This document shows, piece by piece, positions 12,887 to 36,115 of a stretch of 64,000 nucleotides of DNA. Source of the stretch: Syntrophorhabdaceae bacterium (lineage in GTDB: Bacteria; Desulfobacterota; Syntrophorhabdia; Syntrophorhabdales; Syntrophorhabdaceae); NCBI GenBank assembly GCA_963665295.1, contig OY762209.1:3744001-3808000 (forward strand), written 5' to 3'. A program made the translations under genes and the position numbers. Numbering within the stretch: the first letter of the stretch is position 1; each line of letters opens with the position of its first letter. The notes under the pieces are model-generated. The model was not told the origin of the DNA. It made no database searches and saw only the letters and a list, made by a program, of their open reading frames with translations.

Positions 12887-13480
12887 ATGATTCATATCGA
12901 TTTTGACAAATTCAACAAAGTGGGGTTGAAGCCGATTCTGGAAAAGTTCGAGAAGGAGGGTTTGCCGGTTGCCGGCGTGGAGGCCGATAACAAGGCGAAG
13001 CGCGAATCCGGATTTCAGGTAAAATCAGCAACCATCAACTTCGAGAGTGGGCAAAAACTTCTTGTGAAAACGAAAGCTGGCGGTTCAATTTTCCAGGTCA
13101 AGTTGAACAATAAAGTCTTGGCCATCAAGAACGTTGACGACCTCGACAAGGCTATCCAGGAAGTTATCGATTATGCCAAGGAAAATGAGAAGAACTATCA
13201 GAAACAGAGGGAAAAGCAACTTGCCCGGCAGAAAGTGAACGTTCCCAAGATTACGCCTGCCAACGCCTCGGTAGCAGAGCAGATCACACAGTACCAAGCG
13301 ACTCTTGACGAAACGAGGGCTGCCGACGAGGACCTGAGCACCCAAGTGACAGACGTTGAGAATACCAATGCCGAGAAAGGCAGTACTGTAAGTGTCCTCG
13401 AAAACGAACTGAACGGGTTGGTGGCCGCGGGAGAGGCCCTTCAAAATGAATATGACCAACTGAAGGAGGTGGCAGCATGA
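12887..13480 (+). CDS. hdf: Hdf-like protein (DarA N-terminal homolog), virion antirestriction component
   Basis: IDFD....GLKP, KAKRESGFQVK...FESGQ...GSIFQVKLN motifs plus coiled coil; immediately upstream of darA as in P1. Confidence 0.7.
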   Translation: MIHIDFDKFNKVGLKPILEKFEKEGLPVAGVEADNKAKRESGFQVKSATINFESGQKLLVKTKAGGSIFQVKLNNKVLAIKNVDDLDKAIQEVIDYAKENEKNYQKQREKQLARQKVNVPKITPANASVAEQITQYQATLDETRAADEDLSTQVTDVENTNAEKGSTVSVLENELNGLVAAGEALQNEYDQLKEVAA

Positions 13481-15450
13481 ATCCGCTGACGGAGGGAAAG
13501 AAGATTACGCTGGGATATGACTATTTCGCTAAAGGCTTCACCGCCCCCCAGCTATTGGAGGCATATTACAGGCTGATTGCTGACAAGGAGCAGGCGCGTT
13601 TACTCTTTGAGACAGCCTCCATTGACCAAGTGGATGAGGTCTACAACCCCGGAGATGCCTATGACGAGAATGACCGGATGACGACCAAGGAAATGGTGAT
13701 GGAGGCTGTCTCGGTCCAAAAGTTCGCCCGAACGGATACCAAAATGGCGGCACTCGTACGTGTCTTCAATGCTTATCTGAAGGACAAGAATATTGAAGCC
13801 CAGGTGCCCATCATCGGTACACCAAGGAAGTCAGGCCTCTTCGCAACTGTGACTGTGCAGATTCCATTCAGCGACGGCCAAGTGGTGAGTATCATATTCC
13901 ACAGTCCGGACAACAATAAGATGAAGATCACGGCTGATGATGAAATCATTGCTTTCCGTTGGCTCCTGAACAAGAGGGACATCACTCACGTCGTTTCCCC
14001 GGAGAACGATGCCGAAGTCAGTTTGCAGGAAATCGGCAAACGAACCGCTCAATTGGTTGAAAAGAACAGTGCTCGCTTCCAGGCCATGCAAAAGGGTCTG
14101 ATTGAGCAGAAGAAGAATCTCGAAGAGATTAAAACACAGGCCGAAGAAGCAGTGAGACAGCACGATGAACTCATGGGCAAGCTCAAGGAAGGCCAGGGTG
14201 TCTTGGAGACGATAGATGCAAAGATTGCCAACCTGAAAGACCGGATAGTCAAGCAGAAAGCGTTTAACGATGATCTACAAACGAAGATCGACGCGCTGAA
14301 GGCAAAGCGGGCCGGGAATGATGGGAAAGCGGTAGGCGGGGATACGCCGAAGACGGAGGCAGAGATAAAGGCCGAGCACGAACGGGCTGCCTACGAAGAG
14401 AAACGTTCGGCGCTGGGAAGCGAGCTTACGGGTCGCGGGTTTATCGACAACGGCATGGGATGCGTATGGGATAAGGAAGGTTTCGGATATGCCCAGGCCA
14501 GTGGTGTGGATGGATACGGTATTACGGTCGGGCTTGCTGATGGAAGCAAGAAGACCTTCTCCTCGGCCACCCTCGCGGGATTCGACAAACAGGCCTCCAA
14601 CGCTCTCGCCTGGATCGACAAGAACCTTAAAGGGGTAGCGACTCCCGAGATCACGATTGACCCCGCTCTTTCTTCCATGGATGCGACTGCTGGTTTTGCT
14701 GAGTTTGTCGCGAAACAGGACGAGGGACACAATGAGGGTTACAGCCCAAAAGAAAGCGTCTTGAATATCGACGCCGTTGCAAAGAGTGAGGGTCTGGAAG
14801 CCCAATGGTCGGAAGGGGAGGATGACGGGATGCCAATTGCGGTTGGTACTTTCACTATATCGAATGGCAATCAGATCGGCGGGACCCAGATCAGCCCGGA
14901 CGGAAAGGCCGTCTTTCTTCTGAACGGCGAGCGGTACCGAGGTAGTTACTACCTGGCAACCGCCGATGGTGAGACCCAGGATGCGGCCGTGAAAGAAATC
15001 GCCGGAATCATCAAGGCGAAAGCCGAGAAGGACGAAAGGAGCAATCAGGCAGATGAAACGAATCGCCTTATCGAAGTAGGGAAAGGGGTAGTACCGGGTG
15101 TCCGTCTGCAGGACGCAGAAGAAGCAGGAAGATTGTGGGAAATGAAGGGTCGCGGCGAGTTGACCCAAGAGGAATGGGATAAGTACGTTGCCGATCTCCA
15201 GGCATCCAATAAGGTGGCAGCACCTGAGCCTCAGTCTAAGAGCTCCACGGAGACCGATGGCCCAGCAGCCATAAGCGTGCTCAACGATATCCTGGCAGGG
15301 AAGTACGACGACGATTCTACGAGGTTGGGCGAGGCCCTTGATCAGGCAGCTTCCGAACTGGAAAGGGACGGAAAAGCCGAGGCGTATGATGCGTTGCTTA
15401 ACCAGTGCGCCGATTACTTGACATCCATTCTGAAGAAGGAGGCAGCCTAA
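13477..15450 (+). CDS. darA: DarA-like defence-against-restriction protein
   Basis: IPFSDGQVVSIIFHSP...FRWLLNKRDITHVVSPE...LVEKNSARF (DarA N region) and C-terminal LDQAASELE...YDALLNQCADYLTSIL (DarA C region). Confidence 0.8.
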   Translation: MNPLTEGKKITLGYDYFAKGFTAPQLLEAYYRLIADKEQARLLFETASIDQVDEVYNPGDAYDENDRMTTKEMVMEAVSVQKFARTDTKMAALVRVFNAYLKDKNIEAQVPIIGTPRKSGLFATVTVQIPFSDGQVVSIIFHSPDNNKMKITADDEIIAFRWLLNKRDITHVVSPENDAEVSLQEIGKRTAQLVEKNSARFQAMQKGLIEQKKNLEEIKTQAEEAVRQHDELMGKLKEGQGVLETIDAKIANLKDRIVKQKAFNDDLQTKIDALKAKRAGNDGKAVGGDTPKTEAEIKAEHERAAYEEKRSALGSELTGRGFIDNGMGCVWDKEGFGYAQASGVDGYGITVGLADGSKKTFSSATLAGFDKQASNALAWIDKNLKGVATPEITIDPALSSMDATAGFAEFVAKQDEGHNEGYSPKESVLNIDAVAKSEGLEAQWSEGEDDGMPIAVGTFTISNGNQIGGTQISPDGKAVFLLNGERYRGSYYLATADGETQDAAVKEIAGIIKAKAEKDERSNQADETNRLIEVGKGVVPGVRLQDAEEAGRLWEMKGRGELTQEEWDKYVADLQASNKVAAPEPQSKSSTETDGPAAISVLNDILAGKYDDDSTRLGEALDQAASELERDGKAEAYDALLNQCADYLTSILKKEAA

Positions 15451-15451
15451 C

Positions 15452-16912
15452 ATGCGACTCTCATTCTCTGAAAAAAGGGCACTTCAAAAGACCATTATGA
15501 CAAACCTCGCCAGCCTCCAAGGAAGTGATTTGTCCTTCCAGGACAAAAGACGGTTCCAGAAGGAAATCCAGGACGCCTTTGCCAAGCTCAAGGAGAAACT
15601 GGACATCGTTGATACCGGCGAACCACAGATGGGGCCTGCAACGATGGACGACGTCAATAATGTCATGCCTTTATTGCAACACTTTATCGGTGCATCCCAG
15701 TTAGCCGCGATGGGAGATGGCGTGCGGGGTGAGGAGGGACAATTCTTCAAAGACAAGTTTATCGAAATTGCCAGAACCATTGACGCCATGCCGAAGACCT
15801 ACGGTCAGGACGGCAAAGGTGACGATGCGATGGTGTACCTCCACTATTTCAAGGGTGGGTCCGATTGGTATATCACGGAAAAAGATCAAGAGACGGAGCA
15901 AGCCCAGGCGTTCGGTTATGCAATTCTGAATGGCGACAAGCAGAACGCCGAATTGGGGTATATCAGCATTGAGGAGTTGACAAAGCTCGGCGTCGAGCTT
16001 GATCTGTATTGGAGTCCCAAAACGCTCGGAGAGATCAAAGGCACCGCGCCCGCGCAGGGAAAAGCCTCCGGGAACGAAAATCAGAGACTATCTGACCTGA
16101 TTGCCGGCAAATACAATAACGAGCCACCGGAGGGGTTCCTGAAGATCTTGAAGGAGATCATAGAGGAAATCAACGACATTGAGCCTGTAAAGCCGCCCAC
16201 CATCACCTACATCGAGACGAACCAGGACAAGATCAATTCGATCATGGAAAGCGCCCTGGAAGAGGTCTTTGGGAGACTGTGGGAGAAGACGAGTGGATTT
16301 CCTCCTCGACCAATAGAAACATTGTCTTCGCCACAACCGGCCAGTGATGCCGTAAGGATCAAGAATCAGGACGGCGACTATGGGCCGCCGAGGAAGATCA
16401 GCATTGACATCGATGACGATTTCTATGGCCCGACCGCGTTTCGCGCGGTGATCAGAGCCATTGAAGAGGCCCGGGCGGGAGACACGATTGAAATCAAGGT
16501 GAATTCGAACGGGGGAGATACCCAGTCGGCACAGGCCATTTATGTGGCCTTGTTGAAGACGCTGGCGAAGACGAAAGCGATCATCATCAACGCCTATTCC
16601 GCGGGAAGCATCGTCGCAATGGCCTGCGATGAGATAGAGCCGACGCCATTCTGCAGCATGATGGTCCATAATGCTTCCACATTCAGCGGGGGTAAACTCG
16701 GGGACCTGGCTGGTAAGGCTACATTCTTGAATGACTATTTTGGTGAGTGGTATCAGCAGCTTTACGCCGGATTCCTCTCTGATGAGGAATTGAAGGACGT
16801 TATCAAGGGTCAGGATTTCTGGCTGAAAGAACCTCAGATAAGGGAACGCCTGAAGAACTGGAAACCGATCCGTCAGCGGTTACAGGAAAACGGAACGATC
16901 AAGGCTGCCTGA
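15452..16912 (+). CDS. DdrA-like protein with inserted DUF2958-like domain and C-terminal ClpP/S14-like protease domain
   Basis: Position after darA. MPKTYGQDGKG...LHYF..GSDWYITE...AELGYISIEEL (DUF2958-like). VNSNGG...AYSAGS...MMVHN...QDFWL (ClpP-type Ser/His/Asp). Confidence 0.7.
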   Translation: MRLSFSEKRALQKTIMTNLASLQGSDLSFQDKRRFQKEIQDAFAKLKEKLDIVDTGEPQMGPATMDDVNNVMPLLQHFIGASQLAAMGDGVRGEEGQFFKDKFIEIARTIDAMPKTYGQDGKGDDAMVYLHYFKGGSDWYITEKDQETEQAQAFGYAILNGDKQNAELGYISIEELTKLGVELDLYWSPKTLGEIKGTAPAQGKASGNENQRLSDLIAGKYNNEPPEGFLKILKEIIEEINDIEPVKPPTITYIETNQDKINSIMESALEEVFGRLWEKTSGFPPRPIETLSSPQPASDAVRIKNQDGDYGPPRKISIDIDDDFYGPTAFRAVIRAIEEARAGDTIEIKVNSNGGDTQSAQAIYVALLKTLAKTKAIIINAYSAGSIVAMACDEIEPTPFCSMMVHNASTFSGGKLGDLAGKATFLNDYFGEWYQQLYAGFLSDEELKDVIKGQDFWLKEPQIRERLKNWKPIRQRLQENGTIKAA

Positions 16913-16913
16913 A

Positions 16914-19022
16914 ATGCCAACTCCGCTTGTCAAAAAGCTTGCCGAGGAAAATGGCATCGACATTCAGGAAGCCGAGAAGTGGTGGGATAAGGCAATGAAG
17001 ATTGTCGAGGAACAGGCCGGTTTGTCCGAGGATGATGGAGAAGACTACTGGAAGTATGTGGTCGGGGTTTTCAAGAAGTCCATGGGCGCCGGCGAGGATG
17101 ACAGCATTTCGGAAAGCTCCGGTGGCCGCCCTGGGAAAAAGGATAGGTTAAAAGTGGTATACCCCCAACGAGTCCGAGAAGCGAGGTCGTTCTCGGAGAT
17201 CCTGCAAATCTTCTCCATGCTGTTTCCGTACGCCGTGGATTCGCATTCATGGGATGCAGAATACGAGGCGGCAAAGAAATTCAGGGTTCTTTTCGAAGGG
17301 TTTCAACAGGAATCCGATGTTGAACGTAAATATGAGATTGCCTGCGAGATGGAGGAGTTCTCCCGGTCATTTCGTTATAAAGGCGGTTTTCTGACCATGG
17401 CTGGCGATGGTGCGGAGTCGAGAGAGGTATTGAAATTTGTGGCGCCCTCATCGATTGGCGCATTTCTTCTGGAAAGAAACTGTCAGGAGGGTGAAAACGC
17501 CATCGCAGAGATCATTCCCGATTACAAGGAGAAGTTGAGCGCCCAACGAGACCTTCAGGCAAGAATGGACCAGATAGAAAGAGATTATGGCCTTAATCTA
17601 TCCGACACGTTACTCAGGAAGAAGGAAGAGGTTGATTCCGCGAAGCGAGAGTGTGGCGTCCTTGGTCTGCAGACCAGAGCGGATGCGTTAAAAAATGAAC
17701 AATGGGAGTGGACAAGAAACCACACAAGGACTATGCCGCTTCGTAGTGAAGCAGAGGCTTATGCAAGGTGGCAGCGGGAGCTTGATGACTATAACGGAGA
17801 AAAAGGTAAGCGATTTCAAGAACTTATGGACAAGTCCTATGAACTCGAAAATATTCATGTAAAACCCGTGCGTGACAGATGGAACGCTGAGATCGCACAG
17901 GCCGAAAACGAGAGAAACAGAGAGGTTTCCCTCTTACAAGAGGCCGAGAGGGAGCTTGAGGACGCAGTCGGTGGAGCCCTTATCTTCAAGATACTGGAGT
18001 CATCTCCTGTAACCAAAGAAGATGCAGGCCAATGGGTAAAGAACCAGAGGGTGAGTAAGTCGGCAGTTATCCGACTGAAGAAGCAGGGATATGAAGAAAG
18101 TGCCCTTAGGGATCACATGGCCGAATTCTATAGACTGACAGGCGGAAGGATCGGAAAGGCTTTTATCGAAACGAAGGGAGACAAGAGGGCGAAGGCTGCC
18201 TTTTGGGATGGAACTATCTATATTGACGGAAGTTTTACGAAGCGGACCCTCTTTCACGAGATGGGGCACCTACTGGAAAGAGAGCCAAAATTAGAGGCCA
18301 TGGCAGAGACATTCCGTGACGGGAGGGCAAAGAAGGAAAAGGGAACGAAGACTCTGAAAAGCATCACGAACAATCCGGCGTACCGGTCTGATGAGGTCGC
18401 CTACACCGATGACTTTTTTGATCCTTATGTTGGAAAAGTCTATAGGAACAATTGCACTGAAGTGCTTTCCATGGGGACGCAAATGTTTTCTTCTCCTCAA
18501 GATGCCACGTTTCTGGCAAGTCGGGATCCACAGATGTTCAATATGATGCTGGGCTTCATGCTCTCCAAGCCCACTGCCCGCGAGATCGCCAAAAAAGAGA
18601 TGATTCAGGAAGTGGCTTCGGACATGGTGAGCGAACGAGACCGGCTTGATAAGTTCTACCAAACCCTGACGAAAAGGGCCAAGGATGGTTCGTTTTGGGA
18701 AGGGAAAGGCTCTGGATTGATTTCCAGGCTTGAAGGTTACGGCAACGGAAAGGGAAGCGGGAAGACAATGGTTCTTTACTACTATCCCGGAGATCTGCAG
18801 CAGGGACCGGGTGAGTATGTGCAGTCGAGCTTTTTCAAAAACAGACAGGCAGCAAAAAACTTTGCCTATCTCTACCTTCTTTATGTCCAGAAGGGAATCA
18901 TAACCAGCAAGGATGAAGCCTCCCGTCTCAGCTATGCCATAGCTAACTGTGTGCTGAGAAAGACAATACCTCCAAAACTGACAATTGACGATCTTCCAAC
19001 GTTTATCGAGGAGTTGAAATGA
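16914..19022 (+). CDS. DdrB-like protein with zincin metallopeptidase domain
   Basis: TLFHEMGHLLE (HExxH at 18255-18269) followed by DDFFDPYVGKVY...TEVLSMG; position matches P1 ddrB. Confidence 0.7.
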   Translation: MPTPLVKKLAEENGIDIQEAEKWWDKAMKIVEEQAGLSEDDGEDYWKYVVGVFKKSMGAGEDDSISESSGGRPGKKDRLKVVYPQRVREARSFSEILQIFSMLFPYAVDSHSWDAEYEAAKKFRVLFEGFQQESDVERKYEIACEMEEFSRSFRYKGGFLTMAGDGAESREVLKFVAPSSIGAFLLERNCQEGENAIAEIIPDYKEKLSAQRDLQARMDQIERDYGLNLSDTLLRKKEEVDSAKRECGVLGLQTRADALKNEQWEWTRNHTRTMPLRSEAEAYARWQRELDDYNGEKGKRFQELMDKSYELENIHVKPVRDRWNAEIAQAENERNREVSLLQEAERELEDAVGGALIFKILESSPVTKEDAGQWVKNQRVSKSAVIRLKKQGYEESALRDHMAEFYRLTGGRIGKAFIETKGDKRAKAAFWDGTIYIDGSFTKRTLFHEMGHLLEREPKLEAMAETFRDGRAKKEKGTKTLKSITNNPAYRSDEVAYTDDFFDPYVGKVYRNNCTEVLSMGTQMFSSPQDATFLASRDPQMFNMMLGFMLSKPTAREIAKKEMIQEVASDMVSERDRLDKFYQTLTKRAKDGSFWEGKGSGLISRLEGYGNGKGSGKTMVLYYYPGDLQQGPGEYVQSSFFKNRQAAKNFAYLYLLYVQKGIITSKDEASRLSYAIANCVLRKTIPPKLTIDDLPTFIEELK

Positions 19023-22000
19023 TTGAAGAGATGCAGTATCCGGTAACGCCCTATGCTTTCGACATCGAAACGTCTATGGGCGATCTGCGCATTGAGATGG
19101 AGTCCACGGAGTTTGATGCTCCTTCAAAATTCGAGATCAAGACCTATGGCGGGAATGCGGCTCCGGAATCGGTTTTGAGAAGATACTTTCATGAATTCGG
19201 GTTCGGGATGAGGGGCCATAGAATAGAGATGGAAGGTGATCGAGCCTTTCCATCCGATTTCTACCATGTTTTGACCATGAGCCGCACCTATCTTCAAGAG
19301 GGGAAGCAAAGCAGCATTCTCGACTTCCAAATTATGGGGTTTGTTCCGCGTAAAGGGTATGTAGACTTATTTGTCGGTCCAGAAGGTGATGGTGAAGACG
19401 ATAACATTTTGGAGAGCGCCGAGAGCGTTCTCATGACTCTCACGGGCAAGGAATTGGGCGAGAATATTGATTCAGAGAGCGCCGTCGAGGTAGCCAAGAA
19501 CTATTACAGAGCCAAAATGCAGGGGAAAATAGTAACACGGCCAAGCGTGGGCGATGTACGCTTTTCCGGCAAGGGATGGAAGAAATTCAGGCGAGGCATA
19601 ACAACGGACATCAAGAAGGCCAAACTACTGCCTGCGGCCCCTGTCGTCGTTCGACTCGGAAAGCACTCCGTCTCGGAACTCTACAAGAGCCGTCCCGATA
19701 ATATTGTCCGATTCCATTTTTTTGATGGGAAGATTGAACTCGAAGGCCAAGTCCTGCTTGTCGGTGTGACTGTTGGAGAAGACGACAGAGGTTGTCTCTT
19801 TTATAATCTCAATCATGACCCAGATGTTCTCATAGAAAAACGAAAGGCCCCAAGTTTGCCCAGGTTAGAAGCCCGGGGGTTGGAGCCCTCCATCGGGGAG
19901 CATGATGCTCACCGCAATAGAAGTATAGACGCAGAAGACCGTGATGTCAACATTACGGAATCTGCCTCCATCGATAGGGAAGCCAACAAAGCGGCGTCTT
20001 CTCCAAAAAATAGCCTTCCCGAGCCCACGGAGGCCCAAAAAGAAGCCGGGAATTACCGCAAGGGTCATGTGACTATTCGCGGCCTGGACATCGCTATCGA
20101 GAACCCCGCAGGGTCCGAACGGTCCGGTGTCAACCGGGATGGAAAGAAATGGACATCGAAGATGCGTCACCACTATGGCTATTTCAAAGGTACGAGGGGG
20201 CGCGACAAAGATCATCTTGACGTCTTCCTCGGTCCGGATCCCGAGAACGCAGACAAGGTGTTCATCGTAAACCAGACAAGCCAGGCTACGGGTTCTTTCG
20301 ATGAGCACAAGATCATGTGGGGGTTTGAAACTGAAGACGAGGCGCGTGCGGCCTATCTCTCCAATTACGAAGAGGGATGGCAGGGCCTTGGGAGCATCTG
20401 CACCTTGTTCGTTGACGAATTCAAGGACTGGCTGAAGAACGGAGACACTACTATACCGGTCGAAAGGGGGGTGACCGGGTCGTATCACCAAGACCCATCC
20501 TGGGTCGGTGTTGATTTGGACGGCACGCTTGCAAAGTACGACGGCTGGGTAGGAGAGGATCACATCGGTGAGCCCATTCCCCTCATGATGGCTTTCGTAA
20601 AGCGCCTCGTAAGGGAAGGCAAAAGGGTAAAGATATTCACTGCCAGAGCGTCAGACCCTGAGAAGATACCGCCCGTCAAGAAATGGCTTGAAAGGAATGG
20701 CCTGGGAGACCTTGAAGTAACCAACGTCAAGGATCAGAACATGACCATGCTTTATGATGACCGGGCGGCGAAGGTTATAGCCAACACGGGCGTCATCCTC
20801 GAGAAAGCACGCCAAAGCGCGATAATGGAACGCAGTCGAGCAACTTATTTCCGTGGTGCTGTTCAAGGGGCAGTTTCCTTTGACGACATCGAGGATGTTT
20901 TTGCTGCCACGTTTGGCCCTATCGTGGTCAAACGGTTCATATTTGGGGAGATATCGGAACTGGAAAATCAGATTAAGGCTATGCGTGAGAAGCTCGCTCA
21001 GGTGATGCTGGACAATGACGGTACCGGGATCGTCCAGGGAGAAAAGACGACCGCCTATCTGAACGACAACTCGCCCATTGATCTTCAGTATGCCGTGATC
21101 GGGGCGGATCGCCTTGTTACGTCTCATACCGACGAACTGTCTCTAAATCGGGACTTCTCGCAGGACCTCCAACCCCGGGATCGCGCCCGGGAGGGCATGA
21201 GGTTACAAGTCGAGCAGATGGCGGGTAAGCTGAATCCAGAACGCCTTGGAGAATCTACAAGCGTTTCAACGGGAGCACCCATCATTGGTCAGGACCTCAC
21301 GGTCGAATCAGGCAATGGACGGACCATTGCCATACGAAAAGCCTACACGGCGGGGGAGAAGGGTCAGGAATACAAACAATGGCTCGTTACGAATGCCGAT
21401 CAGTTCGGGATTTCCGGTAAAGCCATTGAGAGTATGGAAAGACCGGTATTGGTAAGGATTCGTCTTACGGAAATTGATCGTTCCGAATTTGCACGGAAAG
21501 CCAATGAAGACGAAATCGCACAGATGGCGCCTTCGGAACTGGCCAAGGCGGATGCTGCAAGGCTGACCAATGACGACATAGCCTTTTTTCAGCCTTCCGA
21601 TGATGGCAATATTGCGGCAACCACGAACCGAGCCTTTATCGCCAAGTTCGTAGAGAAGATGGGAGTTACCGCATCCACCGGATACATGACGAAAGACGGA
21701 AGATACACAAAGCAGCTCATTGACCGGGTGCAGGCCGCTATTTTTCAGAAAGCATACCAAGATGAAGACCTGCTGATTCTCATGGCGGAAGAAGCCGACC
21801 CGAAGATAAAGAACATTTTGAGTGCAATGACTGTCGCCGCGGGCGAATTCTCCGGGGCAAAGGCCGCTGACCAGGATCTCATGGGAATCGATATCCCACA
21901 TCACATCATAGAAGCTGCAAAACTGATAAAGAAGGCAAGGCAAGATGGAGATGCTATCGAGATGGTATTAGCCCAGGGTGGCTTTTTCGAAGCCATATCC

Positions 22001-22723
22001 GAAGATACGAAGCATATCACCCGATTCATCGACAGCAATATCCGATCCGCAAAACGCATGGGCGCCGTCTTTAAGGAGGCGGCGAGCATGCTCAAAAGGC
22101 GTCTGATAGACGAGAAGACACCTAAGTTGATCGCCATGGAAGAGCCATTGCCCACCCCGACCCAGATCCTCACCCGGGCCATAGAAAAGGAAAAGGCGGC
22201 AAGAGAAGTCGGCGAAAACCTTTTTGAGGCGGCCGGAGAATTTGACTGGCGGGAGGCTATAGAAGCCGCGGCAACTTTTGAGGATATTCAGGCCGTTTTC
22301 GAGAGTAAGTTTCCAGAAGTATTCAAAACCGGCAGGGGAAAGCAAACATTCCCTAAGCCTAAAAGAAATATGATGATCAATACCGACAATGGAGAGACAA
22401 CAATAAATCACCTCTTGTCACGCATGGCGCGTGCAAGAGGTGACCAGAAAAGAGACCTGTACTTGTCTACCTACGGCGACGATAGGCGCGCTCTCATAGA
22501 GGCGGCAATTCTGAAATTGCCGGCAGGGGAATACACACTGTCAATAGAAGGCAGGGCAGCGCCTTCACTTCAACGGACAATCATAGACAAATATGGGGTG
22601 TGGGTTGGGGTTGATGTCACTGAACCTCTTGTTCGGGGGATGGCGGTCAAGTATCCAGAAGCAATTCAAGCAACATTCACTCTTGGGTTACAGGAAATAA
22701 GAATAATTACGCGGAGGAGATAA
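19019..22723 (+). CDS. Polyvalent protein: LPD3/PBECR-like RNase, inorganic pyrophosphatase-like, HAD phosphatase and ddrB-ParB-like domains
   Basis: PTEAQKEAGNYRKGH...IENPAGSERSG...HYGY...DHLDVF...FDEHKIM (InPase-like); WVGVDLDGTL...IFTAR...LYDDRA (HAD); LQPRDR...LNPERL...GAPII...VESGNGR (ParB-like); GDVRFSGKGWKK...RFHFF...VGVTVGED...FYNL (LPD3-like, weaker). Confidence 0.8.
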   Translation: MIEEMQYPVTPYAFDIETSMGDLRIEMESTEFDAPSKFEIKTYGGNAAPESVLRRYFHEFGFGMRGHRIEMEGDRAFPSDFYHVLTMSRTYLQEGKQSSILDFQIMGFVPRKGYVDLFVGPEGDGEDDNILESAESVLMTLTGKELGENIDSESAVEVAKNYYRAKMQGKIVTRPSVGDVRFSGKGWKKFRRGITTDIKKAKLLPAAPVVVRLGKHSVSELYKSRPDNIVRFHFFDGKIELEGQVLLVGVTVGEDDRGCLFYNLNHDPDVLIEKRKAPSLPRLEARGLEPSIGEHDAHRNRSIDAEDRDVNITESASIDREANKAASSPKNSLPEPTEAQKEAGNYRKGHVTIRGLDIAIENPAGSERSGVNRDGKKWTSKMRHHYGYFKGTRGRDKDHLDVFLGPDPENADKVFIVNQTSQATGSFDEHKIMWGFETEDEARAAYLSNYEEGWQGLGSICTLFVDEFKDWLKNGDTTIPVERGVTGSYHQDPSWVGVDLDGTLAKYDGWVGEDHIGEPIPLMMAFVKRLVREGKRVKIFTARASDPEKIPPVKKWLERNGLGDLEVTNVKDQNMTMLYDDRAAKVIANTGVILEKARQSAIMERSRATYFRGAVQGAVSFDDIEDVFAATFGPIVVKRFIFGEISELENQIKAMREKLAQVMLDNDGTGIVQGEKTTAYLNDNSPIDLQYAVIGADRLVTSHTDELSLNRDFSQDLQPRDRAREGMRLQVEQMAGKLNPERLGESTSVSTGAPIIGQDLTVESGNGRTIAIRKAYTAGEKGQEYKQWLVTNADQFGISGKAIESMERPVLVRIRLTEIDRSEFARKANEDEIAQMAPSELAKADAARLTNDDIAFFQPSDDGNIAATTNRAFIAKFVEKMGVTASTGYMTKDGRYTKQLIDRVQAAIFQKAYQDEDLLILMAEEADPKIKNILSAMTVAAGEFSGAKAADQDLMGIDIPHHIIEAAKLIKKARQDGDAIEMVLAQGGFFEAISEDTKHITRFIDSNIRSAKRMGAVFKEAASMLKRRLIDEKTPKLIAMEEPLPTPTQILTRAIEKEKAAREVGENLFEAAGEFDWREAIEAAATFEDIQAVFESKFPEVFKTGRGKQTFPKPKRNMMINTDNGETTINHLLSRMARARGDQKRDLYLSTYGDDRRALIEAAILKLPAGEYTLSIEGRAAPSLQRTIIDKYGVWVGVDVTEPLVRGMAVKYPEAIQATFTLGLQEIRIITRRR

Positions 22724-22726
22724 TAA

Positions 22727-25700
22727 ATGATTCTTGAAAGGGCTGTCCCGGATTGGAAATCGAAAGTTCAAGCGGCAAGCAGTTTCTTTGACATAGCGAC
22801 GGTTATCAAGACCCTTTTCGATCTGGAAACGGTCCCGGGGCAAGAGCCTCCGAAAGACCCAAACGACTACAAAGATGAAAATTCTGATTACGGTCTGAAG
22901 GTCAAGGGGATAAAAGCCCGCGAACGTCTCAACGAACAGGCCCGGGAGATCATCGGCCGCGTAAAAACCCCTGACGATCTGACAGACGCAGACCGGGAAA
23001 TACTGAAACAATATTCAGGAAGGGGGGGTCTTACCGAAAACTCCCAGTTTGAATACTACACGCCGACTCACGTGGCCGAGGGACTATGGGACGGCATGAT
23101 GACCAACGGATTCGCAAACGGGAATGTTCTGGATCCCTGCGTAGGTGCCGGCGTCTTTTCGGCGACTAAACCAAAAGGGGCAATCATCACCGGGGCGGAC
23201 ATTGATCCGGTCGGTTCAAGAGTCGCCCAGCTTCTCAATCCGGAAGACCTGATCCAAAGCCAGTCGTTTGAAAGAACCGTCATGGAGACCCCCGACGATA
23301 CCTTTGACGCCGTAGTCGGTAATGTTCCCTTCGGCAACGCGAGAGGAGCGAGCGCCCATGACGATCCCGATTACAAAAATGAAAAGCGCATCGAGCGCTA
23401 TTTCATTCTCAGAGCCCTGGACAAAGTGAAGCCAGGGGGGCTCTGTTGCCTGATCGTGCCTATCAATATCGTTGGCGCCAAGGGTGGACAGTGGGAGAAG
23501 TTCCGAATCGCATGTAGCAAAAAGGCTGAATTCCTCGGGGCCCATAAACTGCCATCCAAAACCTTTGCAGCTCAGGGGACCGACACCGTTGTGGACATCG
23601 TCGCCTTCAGAAAGCATCCGAAGGACTTCCTGGACAGGATAGATAACATTCCTTTCGATACCATGAAGGCCTCAAGGGTCATATGGGACGAATTCATTAG
23701 CGGACAATACTGGGTGGGCGAGGGGCGTCAATTCATCATGGGGAAGTGGGTTCCGAAAATTGAAGGAGATCGATGGAGCCGGGAAGTAGTGGATGGCGAT
23801 ATTGACAACGCGGGGCTAAAGGCGAAGCTCGCGCAGCGCTTTGAGTCCCGTATCAACTGGGACCTCCTTGAAGTGGCGGAGCCCATCATCAGAAACTATG
23901 TGGAGGGCGACCGGAAGATCATCAATGGCACCGAATATGAGTTGAGCAGTGGCCAGTGGTCCCGTGTAGTCAAGATTAATGATACCTCATTGACGATTGA
24001 TAGAGGCCGGTACGGCGCTGGGTCCTTGGACGAACTGAAAGCGGTACTGTCATCGTCTAAAGGGGCTTTGGCCCTGTCCGCGAAACAACTCTTTGCCGTC
24101 TTCAAGGCTTTCCCGGAATTCCTGACCCCCCTACAAAAAGCCTCCATCGAATTCGCCATGAGCCAACCGAAAGAAGAGTATCAGGAGCAACTTTTTCGGG
24201 GTTCGATCATCGGGGGCATGATAGCCCGTTATCAGAATACTGTCAACGATGGGACCGCCGAGGATGCGGACCTGCTTGAGCTTCAGGAGCTTGTTTCCAA
24301 GGAGATCGACACCTATGGACATCCCAAAAACAACAGGGGATTGTTGCTGACCGGTGAATCATCAAAGATGTTCGGCCTCTTCAAGAATGCCGTCGATGAA
24401 AAGGGTCAGTTCTCGGATCTTCTTGCAGGGACCATGGATGGGTCGGGGCGAACCTTGGAGTACGATTCGACCAACTTGCAGGCCATTGTGGAGCATCTCT
24501 TCGTCCGGGAAGGGATTCAGTCCATAGAGTTGGAGGACATCCAAAAACTCTACACGGGGAAACGAGAAATCAAGACACTGTCCGACCTTGTCGATGATGA
24601 TGCGTTGGCTATTACGCCCGATGGCTTTATCATGCCGATGGGACGCTATGCAGTGGGCGACATCTATCCTAAGGTCCAGGCCATGAGCGACGCCCTAGCG
24701 GTCGAAACGGATGAACGGGTCAAGGGCAAATACATGGAGCAGATAGAAGAGATTATGCGCCGGCGAAAGACAACGAAGCCGGAAGACATCTCTTTTGATA
24801 TGCGCCAAAAATGGTTCAGCAAGAAATATGTGATCGATTTTCTCAGGGAAAACGGCTATTCGCACCTCACCTACGGCACTATGGAAGAGGTCGTCAAAGA
24901 GAACCCCTATGACGGGAAGACTTTTACTGCACGTGCGCTGAAAGAGGATTACGATAATCCATTCGGCAGGTTCTCTGGAATTGACGATAGTAAGGGAGGC
25001 TTCCCGAAGCAGTTCCTCAAATACCTCAATGGCGAGAATGTTACGTCTTCCGGAGAAGACGCCCAGGAAAGAATCAAGGAGTACAAGGATCGATGCCGCA
25101 TTTTTGAAGAACAGTTCAACGTATGGATGCAACAGCACATCGAAATCAACGAGATAACCGAGCGATATAACCGGAAATTCAACGGATTCACCCCTTTTGA
25201 CTATGAGGATGCTGATCTTGGCCTGAAAGATGTCTCTCCTCAGGTAAGGCTTCATGGCTATCAGAATGCAGGCGTACGGCGATTATCTGAAGAGGGTCGG
25301 GGTATTCTGGCACACGATGTAGGACTCGGGAAGACTTTCACCGCTCTCGGTCTCTATGCCTATAACAAAAAGATGGGCCGCTCGAAGAAGACTTGCATCG
25401 TGGTGCCGAAGTCCGTACTTGGGAACTGGTATCACGAATCAAAGAAGTTCTTGGGAAACTGCGACGATGTTCTGTTTGTCGGATTTGAGCCGAAATTGGG
25501 CGACGGCGGACAGATCGAGCAGGAGGTTGTGAAGGATGAGAAAGGAAATCCGAAGGTAAACATACTCACTGGACAGCTTGAATATCAGGACATCCTCATA
25601 GAGAGAAACGGCAAAGAAGACGTGTGGGGGGCCATGTGGAGGATTCCGCAGTCAAACTATTCTCTCATCGTCATGACAAAGGAAAAATTTGGCATGATTC

Positions 25701-28700
25701 CCATGAGACCGGACAGCAAAAAGGCCTATGCGGATAAGATGGTTAAAAGATCGCTTATCAGTGAGAAAATGCACGCAGAGGCAACGAGCGACAGCGCCGC
25801 GACCAACGGTATGTCGGCGGAGAAGAGGGTCTCCTATAGTCAGGATGTTGAAAAGGCGAGGCTCGAACAGCAATTCTCCGATGAGGGAACGGCGAAGAAG
25901 GGGGAACTTCCTTACTTCGAGGATATGGGATTTACCGACGTGATCATAGACGAGTGTCATGAGTTCAAAAACAACATGCTTGGTGGGGAACATTATCAGG
26001 ATGTGGCATATCTCCCCACTGCTCCACCCGCGAAACGTGCCCTCGACATGACCATGAAGATGGCATACCTGCGTGATGCCAATAATGGCCGAGGGGCATA
26101 TATGCTCTCCGCTACCCCGGTAACGAACAGTCCGTTCGAGATATTCAACATGCTTTCCTATGTGTGCCCACTCGAAGAATTCGAGAGATACGGTATCTAT
26201 ACGCCCGATGATTTTATTCGCGTATTCGGGGAGATCATGAGCGTTGATAAGATGATGGTTGACGGGGGACTCAAGACAAAAGACGGGTTGAAGGGGTTTC
26301 AAAACCTCGACGGGCTTCGGAGTATGTTTCACAAGTATGTAAACATGAAAGGTGCCGATGATTTCCCAGATCAGATCAAGCTGCCTCCCCATGAGGAAGT
26401 AAGCCTCGACATCGAATTGACCGAGAAACAGCAAGAGGTTTACGCAATCTTGCGCGAGCGCGCGAAAGACGCTGCGAAGCCGCCACAAAAAGGAGAGAAG
26501 AAGGAAAGTATGTTCTCCGTCATCCGGGATATGGACCGGGTTACGACTGATATGGACCTATATAACAAAACGATGACCTTTGTCTTCCGAGAAGCAGACA
26601 GAGCCAATGTGGACGGCTTAGTAAAGAACCTCCCCCAGTCCATCAAGGTTAAGCGCGTCCTCGATGACGATGAGATGGATGCTCTCGGCCTTGATCCAGA
26701 GATGAACAAGGGTAAGGCCCAGGAAGTCACTGTCAAGCTCAAGACGGAATCACGAACGGAAAACAGCAGTTATATTGTCGTCTTTCCGAAAGAGTATGAG
26801 AATATCGTTATTGACCGCATCCCCGGAAACGGCATTGCAATGGAGAATGTATCGCATCCCCTAATGCCAAAGTATGCGAAGCTCATTGAGAATCTGCGCG
26901 CTGACCTTGAAACCGATGGAAAGCAGCTCATCTTTACCGAAGAGAAATCGCAGCATCAGAAGATTTTACGCCTCATAGTCCATCATATCCCGACTATCTC
27001 CAAACTGATTGGAATTATCAACGCGGATGAAGCAAAGGGAGAGGATATTCAGAAAATATCAGATGAATACAATTCCGGCAGTCTGAAATTCGTGATCTGC
27101 AATAAGAAGGCCGAGGTCGGAGTAAACCTTCAGAAGGGCACGACCGCAATCCACCACTTGACCCTTCCCTGGACCCCGGCGAGCATTCAACAGCGAAACG
27201 GCAGAGGAGTGCGCCAGGGCAATACGGCGGCCATGATCCATATCTACTATTACTGCGGTAAAGGGTCTTTCGACGCCTACCGCCTCGAGATACTGAAGGC
27301 AAAGTCGAACTGGATGAGGGACCTCTTCGACGGTACTGATGCAACGGCGGGGAATGCAAACGCCTTGAGCCAAGATGATATGATGGACATGCTCGAAGCC
27401 GATCCGGAGGCGGCGAAGAAAAGGAGGCTTGAGCGATTGGCGGCGAAGCAAGCCGAGGAAGCTGAGAAGGAAAAAAGGCGCCTTGCGAACCAATTGCAGG
27501 TGTTATCTCAAGCAAGTAGCGATCTCGCTGGTCTCGACGTTGCCAAAAAGGCAGAACAGGAGAAACTGACCAAAAGGGTGATGGACCTTGAGCCGGAGAT
27601 AAAGAGACTTCACGAGCGATGGTCCGCGGCTGAGGGAGACGATAAAGCGAGAATCGGTCGTCAGATAATGGAGAAAGAACAATCTCTGAAAAACGTGAAA
27701 AATAAGCTTTCCTCTCTTGACCAGACGTTCGAGCAGAGGCGGATCAAGCTTACATCCTCAGTAAAACAGGCGTCGGGACTCTTGCGCCAGAAGGCGAAAA
27801 AAGGCCAACTCCCCTTTGACGAAGCATTAATCGACCGGCCAGAAAGCGCCTGTGTGACACTGTCCGGCAAGGTAGTAGCGGTCGGGGATTGTTACGAGTA
27901 TCAAGGCGATTATTTCCACGGTATCATCAAAGTCGCGGAGGTTGATCCCATTGCCCGAGCCTTCAAATATGAGGAAATAGTGGGTAGGATTAACAATCAG
28001 GATATGGACCGTGCTCTCGATAAGAAGGAATGGGGATGGTATAAGGCCGAGAGCCTTGCAAAATTGGAACAAAAAGGCCTCACAAAAGTCTCGTATTCAG
28101 AGAAAGAACTCATGTTGAAGAAAATGTTAACTGAATCACATGATTATAAGACTCTAGTGGAAGGCAGAATTGACAAGGATATGTTCCTTACCTACCGGAA
28201 GGAGATCAACTGGGATAAACGCGCCATGTACGTTGTGAGGAGTCAAGACGGAACGACAACGATCACCGATGGCTACTCGACCAAGGACCTTGCCAATGCC
28301 ATTATCTATCCTGACGCGAAGAGCGACGGTTTTAGAAAGGCAGTGTGCGAGGGCTATTTACAACAAAAAAGGAGAGGGGGGTCCGTTTACTACGTCTCCG
28401 GCATGATGAGAATGCTCTTTGGTGACAACTATGAAGATGTCGCCATGGAATATGGCAAGACCGCGACAGAAGCCGAGGTAATAGAAGCGTGCGCAAAGGC
28501 ATGGAACGATCAATGGAAAGCAAAACGCCCTTACGGATGTGACAACCTCGACGAACTTGTAAACGCTTTGTTGGACAGAACGGTCAGCCGTGCGACTGTC
28601 CTGAGTGACACACGATCATCCATGAGATACGCAACCAGTGGGCTTGGAGACAACGATGAGCAAATAGAACTCATAGTAAACCAATACTGCCAGGATCTTA

Positions 28701-29089
28701 TGTCCAGCATCGATGCTGCCGTTGCAGCACAAAAGAGCGAAAAGGAACGTGCGGCCAACGAGTCCTTAAAAAACGATCCACGATATAAGGAAGTGCCGCG
28801 GGAAGTCAAGGACGCATTTGACAAGATCGGAATAACGGTCAAAACGAATACTACAAATATGGCTTTGCCGGGATTCAAAAGGCGCCGTGGGGTTGTTTTG
28901 GAGCCCTTTGCACGGTGGTTTTTTCAGGATAGGAATGGAAAGAGTGGTGCGCTCTTCAGAACAAAAGATATTCTGAAAGCGCGTTATGGGGCTCAGTTCT
29001 TTTCGGATGCGGGGGAAGCGTTCAAAGGGGCTTGGTGGCACGTGCCTTCGGCAACGGACTTGAAGGCAATCTATGAACTAATTGCATAA
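22727..29089 (+). CDS. darB: DarB-like N6-adenine methyltransferase / SF2 (SNF2-like) helicase fusion
   Basis: EYYTP, VLDPCVGAG, VGNVPF (MTase); HDVGLGKT, IIDECH, LSATP, QRNGRGVRQGN (helicase); 2120 aa. Confidence 0.9.
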   Translation: MILERAVPDWKSKVQAASSFFDIATVIKTLFDLETVPGQEPPKDPNDYKDENSDYGLKVKGIKARERLNEQAREIIGRVKTPDDLTDADREILKQYSGRGGLTENSQFEYYTPTHVAEGLWDGMMTNGFANGNVLDPCVGAGVFSATKPKGAIITGADIDPVGSRVAQLLNPEDLIQSQSFERTVMETPDDTFDAVVGNVPFGNARGASAHDDPDYKNEKRIERYFILRALDKVKPGGLCCLIVPINIVGAKGGQWEKFRIACSKKAEFLGAHKLPSKTFAAQGTDTVVDIVAFRKHPKDFLDRIDNIPFDTMKASRVIWDEFISGQYWVGEGRQFIMGKWVPKIEGDRWSREVVDGDIDNAGLKAKLAQRFESRINWDLLEVAEPIIRNYVEGDRKIINGTEYELSSGQWSRVVKINDTSLTIDRGRYGAGSLDELKAVLSSSKGALALSAKQLFAVFKAFPEFLTPLQKASIEFAMSQPKEEYQEQLFRGSIIGGMIARYQNTVNDGTAEDADLLELQELVSKEIDTYGHPKNNRGLLLTGESSKMFGLFKNAVDEKGQFSDLLAGTMDGSGRTLEYDSTNLQAIVEHLFVREGIQSIELEDIQKLYTGKREIKTLSDLVDDDALAITPDGFIMPMGRYAVGDIYPKVQAMSDALAVETDERVKGKYMEQIEEIMRRRKTTKPEDISFDMRQKWFSKKYVIDFLRENGYSHLTYGTMEEVVKENPYDGKTFTARALKEDYDNPFGRFSGIDDSKGGFPKQFLKYLNGENVTSSGEDAQERIKEYKDRCRIFEEQFNVWMQQHIEINEITERYNRKFNGFTPFDYEDADLGLKDVSPQVRLHGYQNAGVRRLSEEGRGILAHDVGLGKTFTALGLYAYNKKMGRSKKTCIVVPKSVLGNWYHESKKFLGNCDDVLFVGFEPKLGDGGQIEQEVVKDEKGNPKVNILTGQLEYQDILIERNGKEDVWGAMWRIPQSNYSLIVMTKEKFGMIPMRPDSKKAYADKMVKRSLISEKMHAEATSDSAATNGMSAEKRVSYSQDVEKARLEQQFSDEGTAKKGELPYFEDMGFTDVIIDECHEFKNNMLGGEHYQDVAYLPTAPPAKRALDMTMKMAYLRDANNGRGAYMLSATPVTNSPFEIFNMLSYVCPLEEFERYGIYTPDDFIRVFGEIMSVDKMMVDGGLKTKDGLKGFQNLDGLRSMFHKYVNMKGADDFPDQIKLPPHEEVSLDIELTEKQQEVYAILRERAKDAAKPPQKGEKKESMFSVIRDMDRVTTDMDLYNKTMTFVFREADRANVDGLVKNLPQSIKVKRVLDDDEMDALGLDPEMNKGKAQEVTVKLKTESRTENSSYIVVFPKEYENIVIDRIPGNGIAMENVSHPLMPKYAKLIENLRADLETDGKQLIFTEEKSQHQKILRLIVHHIPTISKLIGIINADEAKGEDIQKISDEYNSGSLKFVICNKKAEVGVNLQKGTTAIHHLTLPWTPASIQQRNGRGVRQGNTAAMIHIYYYCGKGSFDAYRLEILKAKSNWMRDLFDGTDATAGNANALSQDDMMDMLEADPEAAKKRRLERLAAKQAEEAEKEKRRLANQLQVLSQASSDLAGLDVAKKAEQEKLTKRVMDLEPEIKRLHERWSAAEGDDKARIGRQIMEKEQSLKNVKNKLSSLDQTFEQRRIKLTSSVKQASGLLRQKAKKGQLPFDEALIDRPESACVTLSGKVVAVGDCYEYQGDYFHGIIKVAEVDPIARAFKYEEIVGRINNQDMDRALDKKEWGWYKAESLAKLEQKGLTKVSYSEKELMLKKMLTESHDYKTLVEGRIDKDMFLTYRKEINWDKRAMYVVRSQDGTTTITDGYSTKDLANAIIYPDAKSDGFRKAVCEGYLQQKRRGGSVYYVSGMMRMLFGDNYEDVAMEYGKTATEAEVIEACAKAWNDQWKAKRPYGCDNLDELVNALLDRTVSRATVLSDTRSSMRYATSGLGDNDEQIELIVNQYCQDLMSSIDAAVAAQKSEKERAANESLKNDPRYKEVPREVKDAFDKIGITVKTNTTNMALPGFKRRRGVVLEPFARWFFQDRNGKSGALFRTKDILKARYGAQFFSDAGEAFKGAWWHVPSATDLKAIYELIA

Positions 29090-29103
29090 GGAGGTTTCAA
29101 AAA

Positions 29104-29766
29104 ATGCTGAAAACAACTCTGAAGTTTGAAAACTACGGTTCGTCGGGCCTGCACTACATCGGGCATGGTGCTGATTTCGAAGTGCCTGGCCATACGATTG
29201 GCACCGCAGGTATTTCCGTCAATGTTGATCAGGATCAGGCCGCTACAATCACGTCGGAAGTCCGGACGAAAAGGCCGGCCATGGTGGTCACCTCCGTCGA
29301 GACCTTCGATGATGGCGTGATTCCTGCGTATATGCCCTTTCAGAAGGACAACTATGCAGGGGCCTCCGCCCCTGACGAGGACAACGACGTGACGGAAGGA
29401 TACTCCGTGGGTTCGGTCTGGATCGACACGACCGCGAATCCCCATGAGATCTACAGATGCGTCGACGCCAGTGAGGGGGCAGCGATATGGCTGAACACAT
29501 CCTTGGAACTGAGCGAGATTCTGAATGCCGATATGAATCTGGCATTGGGAAAGGTATACAAGATCAACGGCGTGAAAGTTGTCGGGGCCCCTGGCGCCCA
29601 CGTTGCCGATGCAAGCGCTGTTGTCGGAACGGCAACGAATGGAGGCTATGGATTCGTGTCTGCTGATGAAATGAATGCTTTCATCAGCGGTGTCAATGCC
29701 GTAAAAGATGCCGCCAATGCGGTTGTCGCCAGACTTGAAGGACATGGGCTTATTGCCTCTGCCTAA
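29104..29766 (+). CDS. Probable head fibre/virion decoration protein
   Basis: APDEDNDVTEGYSVGSVWIDTT...YRCVDASEGAAIW fibre-type motif and C-terminal NAVVARLEGHGLIA. Confidence 0.5.
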   Translation: MLKTTLKFENYGSSGLHYIGHGADFEVPGHTIGTAGISVNVDQDQAATITSEVRTKRPAMVVTSVETFDDGVIPAYMPFQKDNYAGASAPDEDNDVTEGYSVGSVWIDTTANPHEIYRCVDASEGAAIWLNTSLELSEILNADMNLALGKVYKINGVKVVGAPGAHVADASAVVGTATNGGYGFVSADEMNAFISGVNAVKDAANAVVARLEGHGLIASA

Positions 29767-29917
29767 ATAGACAATGTCGAGAGGATATTATGACCAAAAT
29801 GGCCGCTGTAGCAGGCGGCCATTTGCACCGCCTATGGATCTTGCAATTACAGACGGAGCAGGGTATCTTGTCGGAAAGACGAAATTGACGCAGGACCAGG
29901 CAGTGTAAGGAGACGCG

Positions 29918-30322
29918 ATGAATATCTACAAGCCCTCTGAAAATGATTTGCAACCCCTATTGGATCAGGCCACGGCCAATCAGCCAGTTGATCAGTGGAT
30001 AGACAAATTCCTGGCAAATCTGAAGGCCATCCTTCTCAAGAGCCCGCTTCGCTACCGAGCTTATGGACCATACTGGTGGCTGCTGAAAAAAGCCTATATC
30101 GATAAGGAGGATTTCTCCTTTGGAGGCTTTCTTGACCGGGAATGGCTCTCAACCATGGACTACGGTAAGCCAGAATTGAATATTGTGGCCGCCTTCCTCT
30201 ATGAGGATATGAGAACGGCCAAGAACATGATCGATGATCCGTTCCACGTTATGGAGACGGTAGACGGTGGAGATGCGATTGAATTCGGCTCCAACGATCC
30301 AGAGATGGAGATGAAGATATAG
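29918..30322 (+). CDS. ulx: Ulx-like protein (DarB incorporation factor in P1)
   Basis: LLKSPLRYRAYGPYW..LKK...FG..LDR...Y.KPEL..VAA.LY closely follows P1 Ulx (recalled); near darB. Confidence 0.75.
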   Translation: MNIYKPSENDLQPLLDQATANQPVDQWIDKFLANLKAILLKSPLRYRAYGPYWWLLKKAYIDKEDFSFGGFLDREWLSTMDYGKPELNIVAAFLYEDMRTAKNMIDDPFHVMETVDGGDAIEFGSNDPEMEMKI

Positions 30323-36043: not shown

Positions 36044-36115
36044 AGCCGACGGCGAGAGTCGAACTCGCGACCTGCTCATTACGAGTGAGCTGCTCTACCC
36101 CTGAGCTACGTCGGC
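36044..36115 (-). tRNA. tRNA-Thr (anticodon CGT), CCA not encoded; probable prophage attachment site
   Basis: Reverse complement GCCGACGTAGCTCAGGGGTAGAGCAGCTCACTCGTAATGAGCAGGTCGCGAGTTCGACTCTCGCCGTCGGC folds into a cloverleaf with anticodon loop CTCGTAA and T-loop TTCGACT. Confidence 0.97.

Follow-up and report, generated by a model that had tools for sequence, protein, structure and literature searches.

The closest described relatives of the system reported here are the head and Dar proteins of phage P1 (PMC9024508, PMC12810830), the prohead protease systems of T4 and SPN3US (PMC9026906, PMC10052503), and the polyvalent proteins of Iyer et al. 2017 (PMC5512222). The stretch analysed, called the window throughout, comprises 64,000 nucleotides (G000:C1:3744001-3808000) from a Syntrophorhabdaceae bacterium, and its first 35 kb hold the late genes of a P1-like prophage. 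We describe a short acidic motif, [ILMV]-[LMFT]-E/[SAR] (a slash within a motif marks the predicted cut), which recurs between the enzyme modules of the Dar proteins and in the head proteins of this prophage, together with Pro, the putative prohead protease that would recognize it. The overall explanation, to which we assign a probability of about 0.7, is that Pro cuts the packaged Dar polyproteins at this tag into pieces that enter the host with the DNA.

With P1 the prophage shares homologues of Hdf, DarA, DdrA, DdrB, DarB, Ulx, Prt and Pro (PHROGs and Pfam; hidden Markov model (HMM) matches on the P1 proteins) as well as gp23, and in both phages the motif stands at the corresponding positions of gp23, DarA, DdrB, portal and Pro. 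The window phage differs in being integrated at a tRNA gene, in having its Dar genes in one block with many more enzyme modules, and in carrying the halves of P1 DdrB in two genes. A Pro consensus, an internal cargo site or a shared leader is not described in the accessible text of the two P1 papers. Our literature search, whose coverage left out most subscription papers, found no paper that gives a consensus for P1 Pro, sites inside Dar proteins or a lineage of the Asp type. With T4 gp21 (L/I-X-E; IP capsid-targeting propeptides; Alt) and SPN3US gp245 (A-X-E) Pro shares, by prediction, the protease fold, a cut after Glu in a three-residue motif, a C-terminal site of its own and the processing of ejected head proteins. 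In contrast, the cuts described in the accessible T4 and SPN3US text remove terminal propeptides or destroy the scaffold, whereas the sites here lie between folded enzyme modules, the leader follows the site and would be retained rather than removed, and some lineages use Asp. LPD3, InPase, DdrB-ParB, DarA-N, metallopeptidase and methylase-helicase domains, as well as the idea of splitting, are shared with the polyvalent proteins, and the window proteins likewise combine several conflict domains per polypeptide, variable architecture and a late-gene context. In the available part of PMC5512222, splitting is attributed to an embedded metallopeptidase and no site is defined, whereas here a defined site points to a head protease acting in trans.

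Expected motif counts were derived from 3,886 host open reading frames (ORFs; 1.55 M residues). In the 7,399 residues of head and Dar proteins the loose pattern [ILMV]xE[SAR], for which a test of enrichment had first been proposed, was barely above chance (40 against 29.6 expected; P=0.04, 1.35-fold). By contrast, there were 15 matches to the tight pattern [ILMV][LMFT]E[SA] against 3.7 expected, about four-fold (P=8e-6; reached in 0/300 shuffles), and, as predicted for tail proteins, no enrichment in the 6,775 tail and other residues of the window (3 against 3.4). The initial annotation was right in placing a motif at the module joints, and the form [IL]-x-E that it gave has to be narrowed. 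As the tight pattern was picked after inspection of the window, P1 provides the fairer test of enrichment: 13 matches against 3.0 expected in head and Dar proteins (P=2e-5) and 2 against 2.0 in tail proteins.

All motifs named initially were found at their places, namely IMES 16241, ISES 17106, ILES 19406, ITES 19952, ILEK 20795, IMER 20822, LFEA 22220 and ILER 22730 in the Dar block, IFER 139 and IMES 553 in the core protein, VMEA 13696 and LFET (residues 43-46) in DarA, LTES 32099 in the portal, and ILES 32677 and 32713 in Pro. None of the named sites falls within the Pfam domains detected (LPD3 158-262, InPase 338-473, ddrB-ParB 683-815, Clp 335-425). Further matches, ILES 17991, LLER 18270 in the HExxH helix and three in DarB, fall within folded domains and are probably no cut sites.

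DarA-anchored scans yielded 34 distinct loci, of which 14 were dropped as repeat or near-identical contigs or as truncated; the remaining 20 and the window (21) were used. Module profile HMMs were seeded from window segments, with seed boundaries that agree with those of Pfam, and junctions of up to 200 residues were counted. The motif [ILMV][LMFT]E[SAR] was present in 28 of 67 junctions against 2.9 expected, which bears out the anticipated enrichment in linkers. Shuffled linkers gave a mean of 2.3 and a maximum of 7 motif-bearing junctions in 1,000 trials, control motifs with D, K or Q in place of E gave 0, 2 and 0, and motif density per 1,000 residues was 8.0 in linkers and 0.64 inside domains. 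Effector junctions carried the motif in 28/33 cases (14/16 distinct types), the misses being InPase-HAD four times and N-domain to C-domain once; none of the 34 junctions inside DarA, DdrA or the metallopeptidase did. A second set, 9 of 23 later loci (the rest short or repeats) with 3 of the 9 close to earlier loci, gave 4/5 effector and 0/10 scaffold-internal junctions.

When 27 loci were searched from the modules outwards, the site accompanied InPase in 14/14, ClpP in 8/8, DarA_N in 25/27, the DdrA_C end in 21/27 and the DarB start in 11/20 cases, against 0/24 for DarA_C and 0/25 for DdrA_N. The motif is kept at matching positions in homologues, as had been expected of a functional site. At 140 sites the codons follow background and all synonymous codons are used, both Ser boxes included; the constraint therefore acts on the protein, and a DNA-level repeat as source of the motif was rejected. 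Module order is reshuffled among the loci (N, ParB, LPD3, InPase in L020; InPase, LPD3, HAD in L024). This shuffling with a site at each new junction, and the fusion of LPD3 onto a protease gene described below, fit the earlier suggestion that effectors are gained by appending domains. The cargo proteins of the window and their predicted sites are:

15452..16912, plus strand: DdrA-like scaffold, made up of N repeat, inserted domain and C helical domain, with a ClpP-like domain fused to it (Pfam, PHROGs, module HMMs)
16241..16252, plus strand: predicted site IME/S between DdrA_C and ClpP-like domain (8/8 ClpP fusions; 21/27 DdrA_C ends)
16914..19022, plus strand: small N-domain, DarB-type leader and zincin metallopeptidase (HEMGH), a homologue of P1 DdrB's C-terminal half (phrog_2299 positions 759-963)
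17106..17117, plus strand: predicted site ISE/S after the small N-domain, fitting the relaxed pattern only (alignment with relatives)
19019..22723, plus strand: polyvalent DdrB-like protein, in the order N-domain, LPD3, InPase+HAD, leader+ParB, leader+C-domain
19406..19417, plus strand: predicted site ILE/S before LPD3 (3/3 LPD3 modules site-flanked on both sides)
19952..19963, plus strand: predicted site ITE/S before InPase (14/14 InPase modules)
20795..20833, plus strand: ILEK and predicted site IME/R after HAD and before leader+ParB (HAD downstream 5/6; ParB upstream 5/6)
20858..20917, plus strand: internal copy of the DarB-type leader helix (HMM score 17.3)
22220..22231, plus strand: predicted site LFE/A after the ParB module, aligned with P1 DdrB LFE441/S (alignment; overlaps a family-wide QxxLF-like motif)
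22727..29089, plus strand: DarB methylase-SNF2 helicase, starting with MILE/R and a leader helix (about 22742-22840)

At the position of ISE/S, relatives read VLES, VMES, IMES, VLEG or IHEA (strict 4/7, relaxed 7/7). Cuts in the 19019 protein would yield pieces of 15, 20, 32, 52 and 19 kDa, and a weak leader copy lies behind LFE/A (about 22244-22300). The proposed segmentation of these polyproteins is matched by sites between most modules, InPase and HAD of the window phage not being separated. The ILER assigned to the DarB start is present as well; a cut there would remove no more than four residues, and 9/20 relatives lack the site. The N-domain of the 19019 protein had no usable match in the protein atlas, and for its C-domain the atlas gave a weak methyltransferase-like lead only (0.91, 118/256 features). 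A QxxLF motif (window about 22200-22231), which we take to resemble sliding-clamp-binding motifs, follows ParB in 45/142 distant homologues against 3.7 by shuffle, and 35 of the 45 are without the site. The LF of QxxLF immediately precedes the predicted cut in the P1-like members.

The head proteins and the protease carry the motif at the following places:

G000:C1:3740107-3741714, just upstream of the window: capsid protein with acidic-residue site VLE/AA at the P1 E120/S121 position (alignment)
97..744, plus strand: P1 gp21 homologue, candidate prohead core protein, with sites IFER (139) and IMES (553) (phrog_1053)
13477..15450, plus strand: DarA, with N-terminal propeptide, DarA_N, variable middle and C-terminal helical domain (Pfam and module HMMs)
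13696..13707, plus strand: predicted DarA maturation site VME/A, aligned with P1 LLE68/A69 (alignment; site in 25/27 loci)
30500..32176, plus strand: portal with C-terminal site LTE/S (32099) (strict site in 6/7 extracted relatives; P1 has ILES and Vibrio VLDS)
32188..33213, plus strand: Pro, predicted T4 gp21-fold protease, with its own site ILE166/S (32677) directly after the catalytic domain (model and homologue alignment)

P1 gp23 was shown by Edman mapping to be cut at E120/S121 (PMC9024508). The context of this cut, AMLE/SVAA, aligns with VLE/AA in the capsid protein of the window phage, the best anchor for the motif and one that the initial annotation did not name, and 5/5 relatives have the motif at this place too. 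The cryo-electron microscopy model of P1 DarA begins at residue 70, and the cited 9-kDa fragment is somewhat above the 7.9 kDa predicted for a cut at E68 (PMC12810830). P1 Hdf, reported to be unprocessed, is without the motif, and so is the window Hdf. P1 gp21 (L015:6593-7408, minus strand), annotated as baseplate or tail tube, contains three Pro-type sites, and its homologues in Vibrio, Rb1 and ABMM1 have Asp sites. It is absent from the P1 virion table as far as this is accessible, and on sequence grounds may be a degraded prohead core protein, a protein that P1 is said to lack.

Pro of the window is 37% identical to P1 Pro. A search of PDB sequences with the Pro profile gave no real match, and an earlier model from 10 sequences (pLDDT 57, no structural matches) was replaced by a model of residues 1-171 from 98 sequences (pLDDT 88). 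By Foldseek the best match of this domain model is T4 gp21 (probability 0.99, template modelling score 0.50, E 8e-3), and comparison with 5JBL (T4 gp21) gave Z 11.5 and a root-mean-square deviation of 2.6 over 128 aligned residues; herpesvirus proteases follow. His54, Ser127 and Asp150 are invariant in 126/126 Pro homologues, with a spacing that resembles H77/S153/D178 of SPN3US gp245. Pro's own site is acidic in all 123 aligned homologues (Glu 120, Asp 3); three N-terminally extended homologues do not reach this column. The model thus supports the assignment of Pro to the T4 gp21/assemblin-fold prohead proteases, as initially annotated. We consider it very probable that the motif is the recognition site of Pro.

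The extended homologues (P0160, P0163 = L003:9419-11029, and P0167) carry about 190 additional N-terminal residues with the joint [VI]TE/S, and the extension of P0167 has a precomputed LPD3 match. Residue 56 of Pro (window 32353-32355) is Arg in 121/123 proteases that are not of the Asp type, and Leu, Pro or Ile in three Asp-type proteases; on these very few cases it is a candidate specificity residue. His147 as determinant of Glu or Asp preference was rejected since it varies among Glu-type proteases. PHROG 1801 names the Pro family 'tail fiber protein', and this label has spread into RefSeq phage records.

The residue before the predicted cut differs between lineages. The Pro and core-protein positions read Asp in a Vibrio phage-plasmid, in Xanthomonas phage Rb1 and in Acinetobacter phage ABMM1, and the capsid, portal and DarA sites are clearly Asp in Vibrio and Rb1. 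The Acinetobacter scan comprised 80 loci, two of which were inspected; almost all are near copies of a single phage (identity 83-100%). Tight Glu/Asp counts in head and Dar proteins were 15/1 for the window, 13/4 for P1, 7/1 for D6, 3/14 for Vibrio and 1/9 for Rb1. In the Vibrio DarB the order is N-part-VFD/S-InPase-VLD/S-DarB. Linker sites have turned to Asp with the rest of the Vibrio phage, which argues for ongoing selection on the linkers; two Glu motifs within domains stay Glu there and are therefore regarded as structural.

A further element of the cargo proteins is the leader helix. An HMM built from 18 DarB N-termini found 22 further matches above 9 bits, all in cargo proteins and none in host or tail proteins, and 13/23 internal leader copies lie behind a strict site. 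The N-terminal 30 residues of P1 DarB (N30) are a capsid-targeting signal, and BLAST comparisons by the P1 authors revealed no shared N-terminal signal (PMC9024508, PMC12810830). Our leader HMM missed P1 DarB in a direct search. Direct hhalign comparison with P1 DarB residues 1-30 gave probability 23 and E 9e-4 (best of 16 controls 12.8, E 2e-3), and comparison via gammaproteobacterial-type DdrB N-termini gave probabilities of 55 and 82; the best controls over these comparisons reached 12.8 and 4.9. These values are only suggestive of a relationship between the leader and the P1 DarB signal.

Complex prediction for DdrA_C and leader scored 0.46 (best of 3 controls 0.02), with at least 87% contact agreement and a partner pLDDT of at least 63. 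The mark applied to such predictions was reached by 116/157 solved and 2/215 mismatched pairs; at 0.60 or below it was reached by 18 solved pairs and both mismatches. Docking of the leader on DdrA_C is accordingly a weak, model-based lead, which would agree with the order of loading that has been published. By eye, DarA (about 15270-15440) and DdrA (about 16079-16222) have similar C-terminal helical domains, and L034:14397-19823 contains several extra ORFs ending in domains of this type. These observations suggest that DarA/DdrA-type domains may form an extendable docking chain.

From these elements the following course can be proposed. By analogy with P1, Hdf and DarA would line the prohead, DdrA would dock on them and the leader-helix proteins would dock next; leaderless enzyme modules (LPD3, InPase, HAD, ClpP-like) would enter only as fusions. 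Pro would then cut after the acidic residue in the capsid protein, DarA, the portal tail, the core protein and itself, a step measured for P1 gp23 and inferred for the others. It would also cut the cargo linkers, leaving folded pieces of 15-70 kDa in the head, and links that hold the scaffold together are without sites. Finally, in the least supported step, the pieces would be ejected and act separately. P1 Dar proteins are described as co-ejected, and packaging and co-ejection are presumed for the window phage by analogy. That the cargo linkers are cut in virions we regard as probable; separate delivery of the pieces is somewhat favoured.

The evidence is about evenly balanced for a wider picture, a viral-style in-capsid polyprotein strategy. 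Here, docking from DarA to DdrA to leader would load the fusions, Pro would cut at a portable three-residue tag, and any tag-flanked domain could be injected, even one fused to the protease gene. Lineages would have recoded Glu to Asp together with the protease, P1 gp21 would be the core protein, unrecognised as such and degraded, and DdrA the receptor of the targeting signal.

Several observations weigh against cutting of the cargo by Pro, or against the strength of the support for it. The measured cut is that of P1 gp23, a relative's capsid protein, and the sites of the window phage are predicted from sequence. For P1 DarA, Edman sequencing gave no clear signal (PMC9024508). P1 DdrB has been cited as a processed 76-kDa form (PMC5512222), unlike the 47.9 and 60.9 kDa predicted for a cut at E441; a GenBank note states that an earlier DdrB sequence matched residues 1-690 only, which suggests that the 76-kDa figure may stem from an older reading frame. 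Each of the 14 cuts mapped in SPN3US takes off a terminal propeptide, with some 80% of the head proteins of that phage staying uncut, and T4 proteins that undergo multiple cuts are cleared out of the head (PMC9026906, PMC10052503). DarB has no conserved internal site, and the InPase-HAD junction is without a site in 4/4 cases. The scaffold/effector split was made post hoc, with module and seed boundaries drawn with the motif in view, and the related loci are not independent, so that distinct junction types are the fairer count. Concerning the Asp switch, ABMM1 has tight Glu/Asp counts of 1/2, the switch being visible only with a looser pattern (2/9). Tail proteins are also rich in the Asp motif in Rb1 (7 against 2.1 expected) and in the window (6 against 2.5). 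Among 150 distant ParB-DdrB representatives, which mix P1-like and other phages, Asp-site proteins have no excess of other Asp sites; Glu-site proteins have more other Glu sites (1.13 against 0.54 per 1,000), which was not counted as support.

The alternative that survives best, although improbable, is that Pro cuts for release or clearance: cargo would be freed from a tether to the capsid wall, or pieces removed, and several small modules would not arrive in the host cell at all. Core fragments of T4 and propeptides of SPN3US for the most part exit the head, the small N-terminal domains of the cargo proteins match no known function, and some relatives keep a site at the ORF end, where only a few residues would be trimmed. 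However, the site-flanked modules look like intact enzymes (HAD DLDGT, Clp Ser/His motif, InPase), and the co-ejection described for P1 does not fit removal. Moreover, peptide coverage of P1 DdrB in virions was 59.5%, which exceeds either predicted half (44% and 56%), so both sides of the protein are in the virion.

Slightly less likely, the sites could be relics of fusion, if cargo genes began with site and leader, the fusions kept them, and the proteins stay uncut or partly cut. This would agree with the frequent DarB start MILE-R plus leader, with the internal leaders that follow a site, with relatives in which the same modules are separate ORFs, and with the mismatch between the cited mass of P1 DdrB (PMC5512222) and that predicted for a cut. 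Against it, InPase and ClpP modules, which are leaderless, carry the site without exception, the site persists while surrounding linker residues and codons have diverged, and in Vibrio the linker sites took part in the phage-wide change to Asp.

It is quite unlikely that the cutter is the zincin metallopeptidase or the ClpP-like domain instead of Pro. Autoprocessing by the metallopeptidase has been proposed for DdrB (PMC5512222), the window encodes HEMGH, and its Clp domain has a weak match to a head-maturation model related to ClpP (68.9 bits against a cut-off of 120). However, the capsid cut and Pro's own linker bear the same motif, ClpP-like domains occur in 7/21 loci, with none found among the Dar proteins of P1, and the metallopeptidase was not found beside several site-bearing loci: L021, L040 and L045 have site-flanked modules and no metallopeptidase match in the fetched stretch. 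Very unlikely is a motif that is no cargo cut site at all (a matter of composition at helix starts, a signal for DNA shuffling or, behind ParB, the last part of the clamp-binding-like QxxLF), for which the low enrichment of the loose pattern and the site-less QxxLF of distant homologues speak, but against which stand the linker shuffles, control motifs, free codon use, head-versus-tail contrast and coordinated Glu/Asp switch, the clamp reading moreover accounting for one site only.

The prophage that encodes this system measures about 80 kb; on the left it is bounded by a partial tRNA copy, about 44 kb before the window begins, and on the right by the tRNA-Thr gene. Integrase, terminase and capsid genes lie upstream of the window, and the late genes cover tail, Hdf, DarA, DdrA-like, two DdrB-related genes, DarB, Ulx, portal, Pro and lysis (Pfam and PHROGs). 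The element is chromosomal, with the integrase adjacent; this P1-like phage is integrated at tRNA-Thr rather than maintained as a plasmid. The window DarA is a distant homologue, as its score of 124.8 lies below the NCBIfam equivalog cut-off of 350. DarA_N was found in 1/401 genomes of the phylum, that of the window itself. Remaining features of the prophage are:

12887..13480, plus strand: Hdf homologue, no motif (phrog_1620, DarA_N)
29918..30322, plus strand: Ulx homologue, no motif (phrog_1629)
36044..36115, minus strand: tRNA-Thr, right end of the prophage (the partial copy on the left has the integrase next to it)

Between darB and ulx lies an ORF of 220 amino acids (29104-29766) with no site and no named family, matching phrog_33012 only. 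The protein at the tape-measure position (3938-6601) has a VgrG3-like C-terminal domain. The host flank contains a DDE_3 transposase (45974-47056) and two similar TPP-enzyme (oxidoreductase beta-type) genes close by (59660-60586 and 61116-62048).

For P1 the proposed system makes exact predictions: a Pro consensus, a DarA site at E68/A69, a DdrB site at E441/S442, and the shared leader that the P1 authors sought without success. It offers an alternative answer to the splitting of polyvalent proteins, a head protease acting in trans instead of an embedded metallopeptidase. The lineages with Glu and Asp represent a natural experiment in the co-evolution of a protease and its substrates. The tag would explain why effector domains shuffle freely, and it lets module boundaries and candidate anti-defence effectors be read from sequence.

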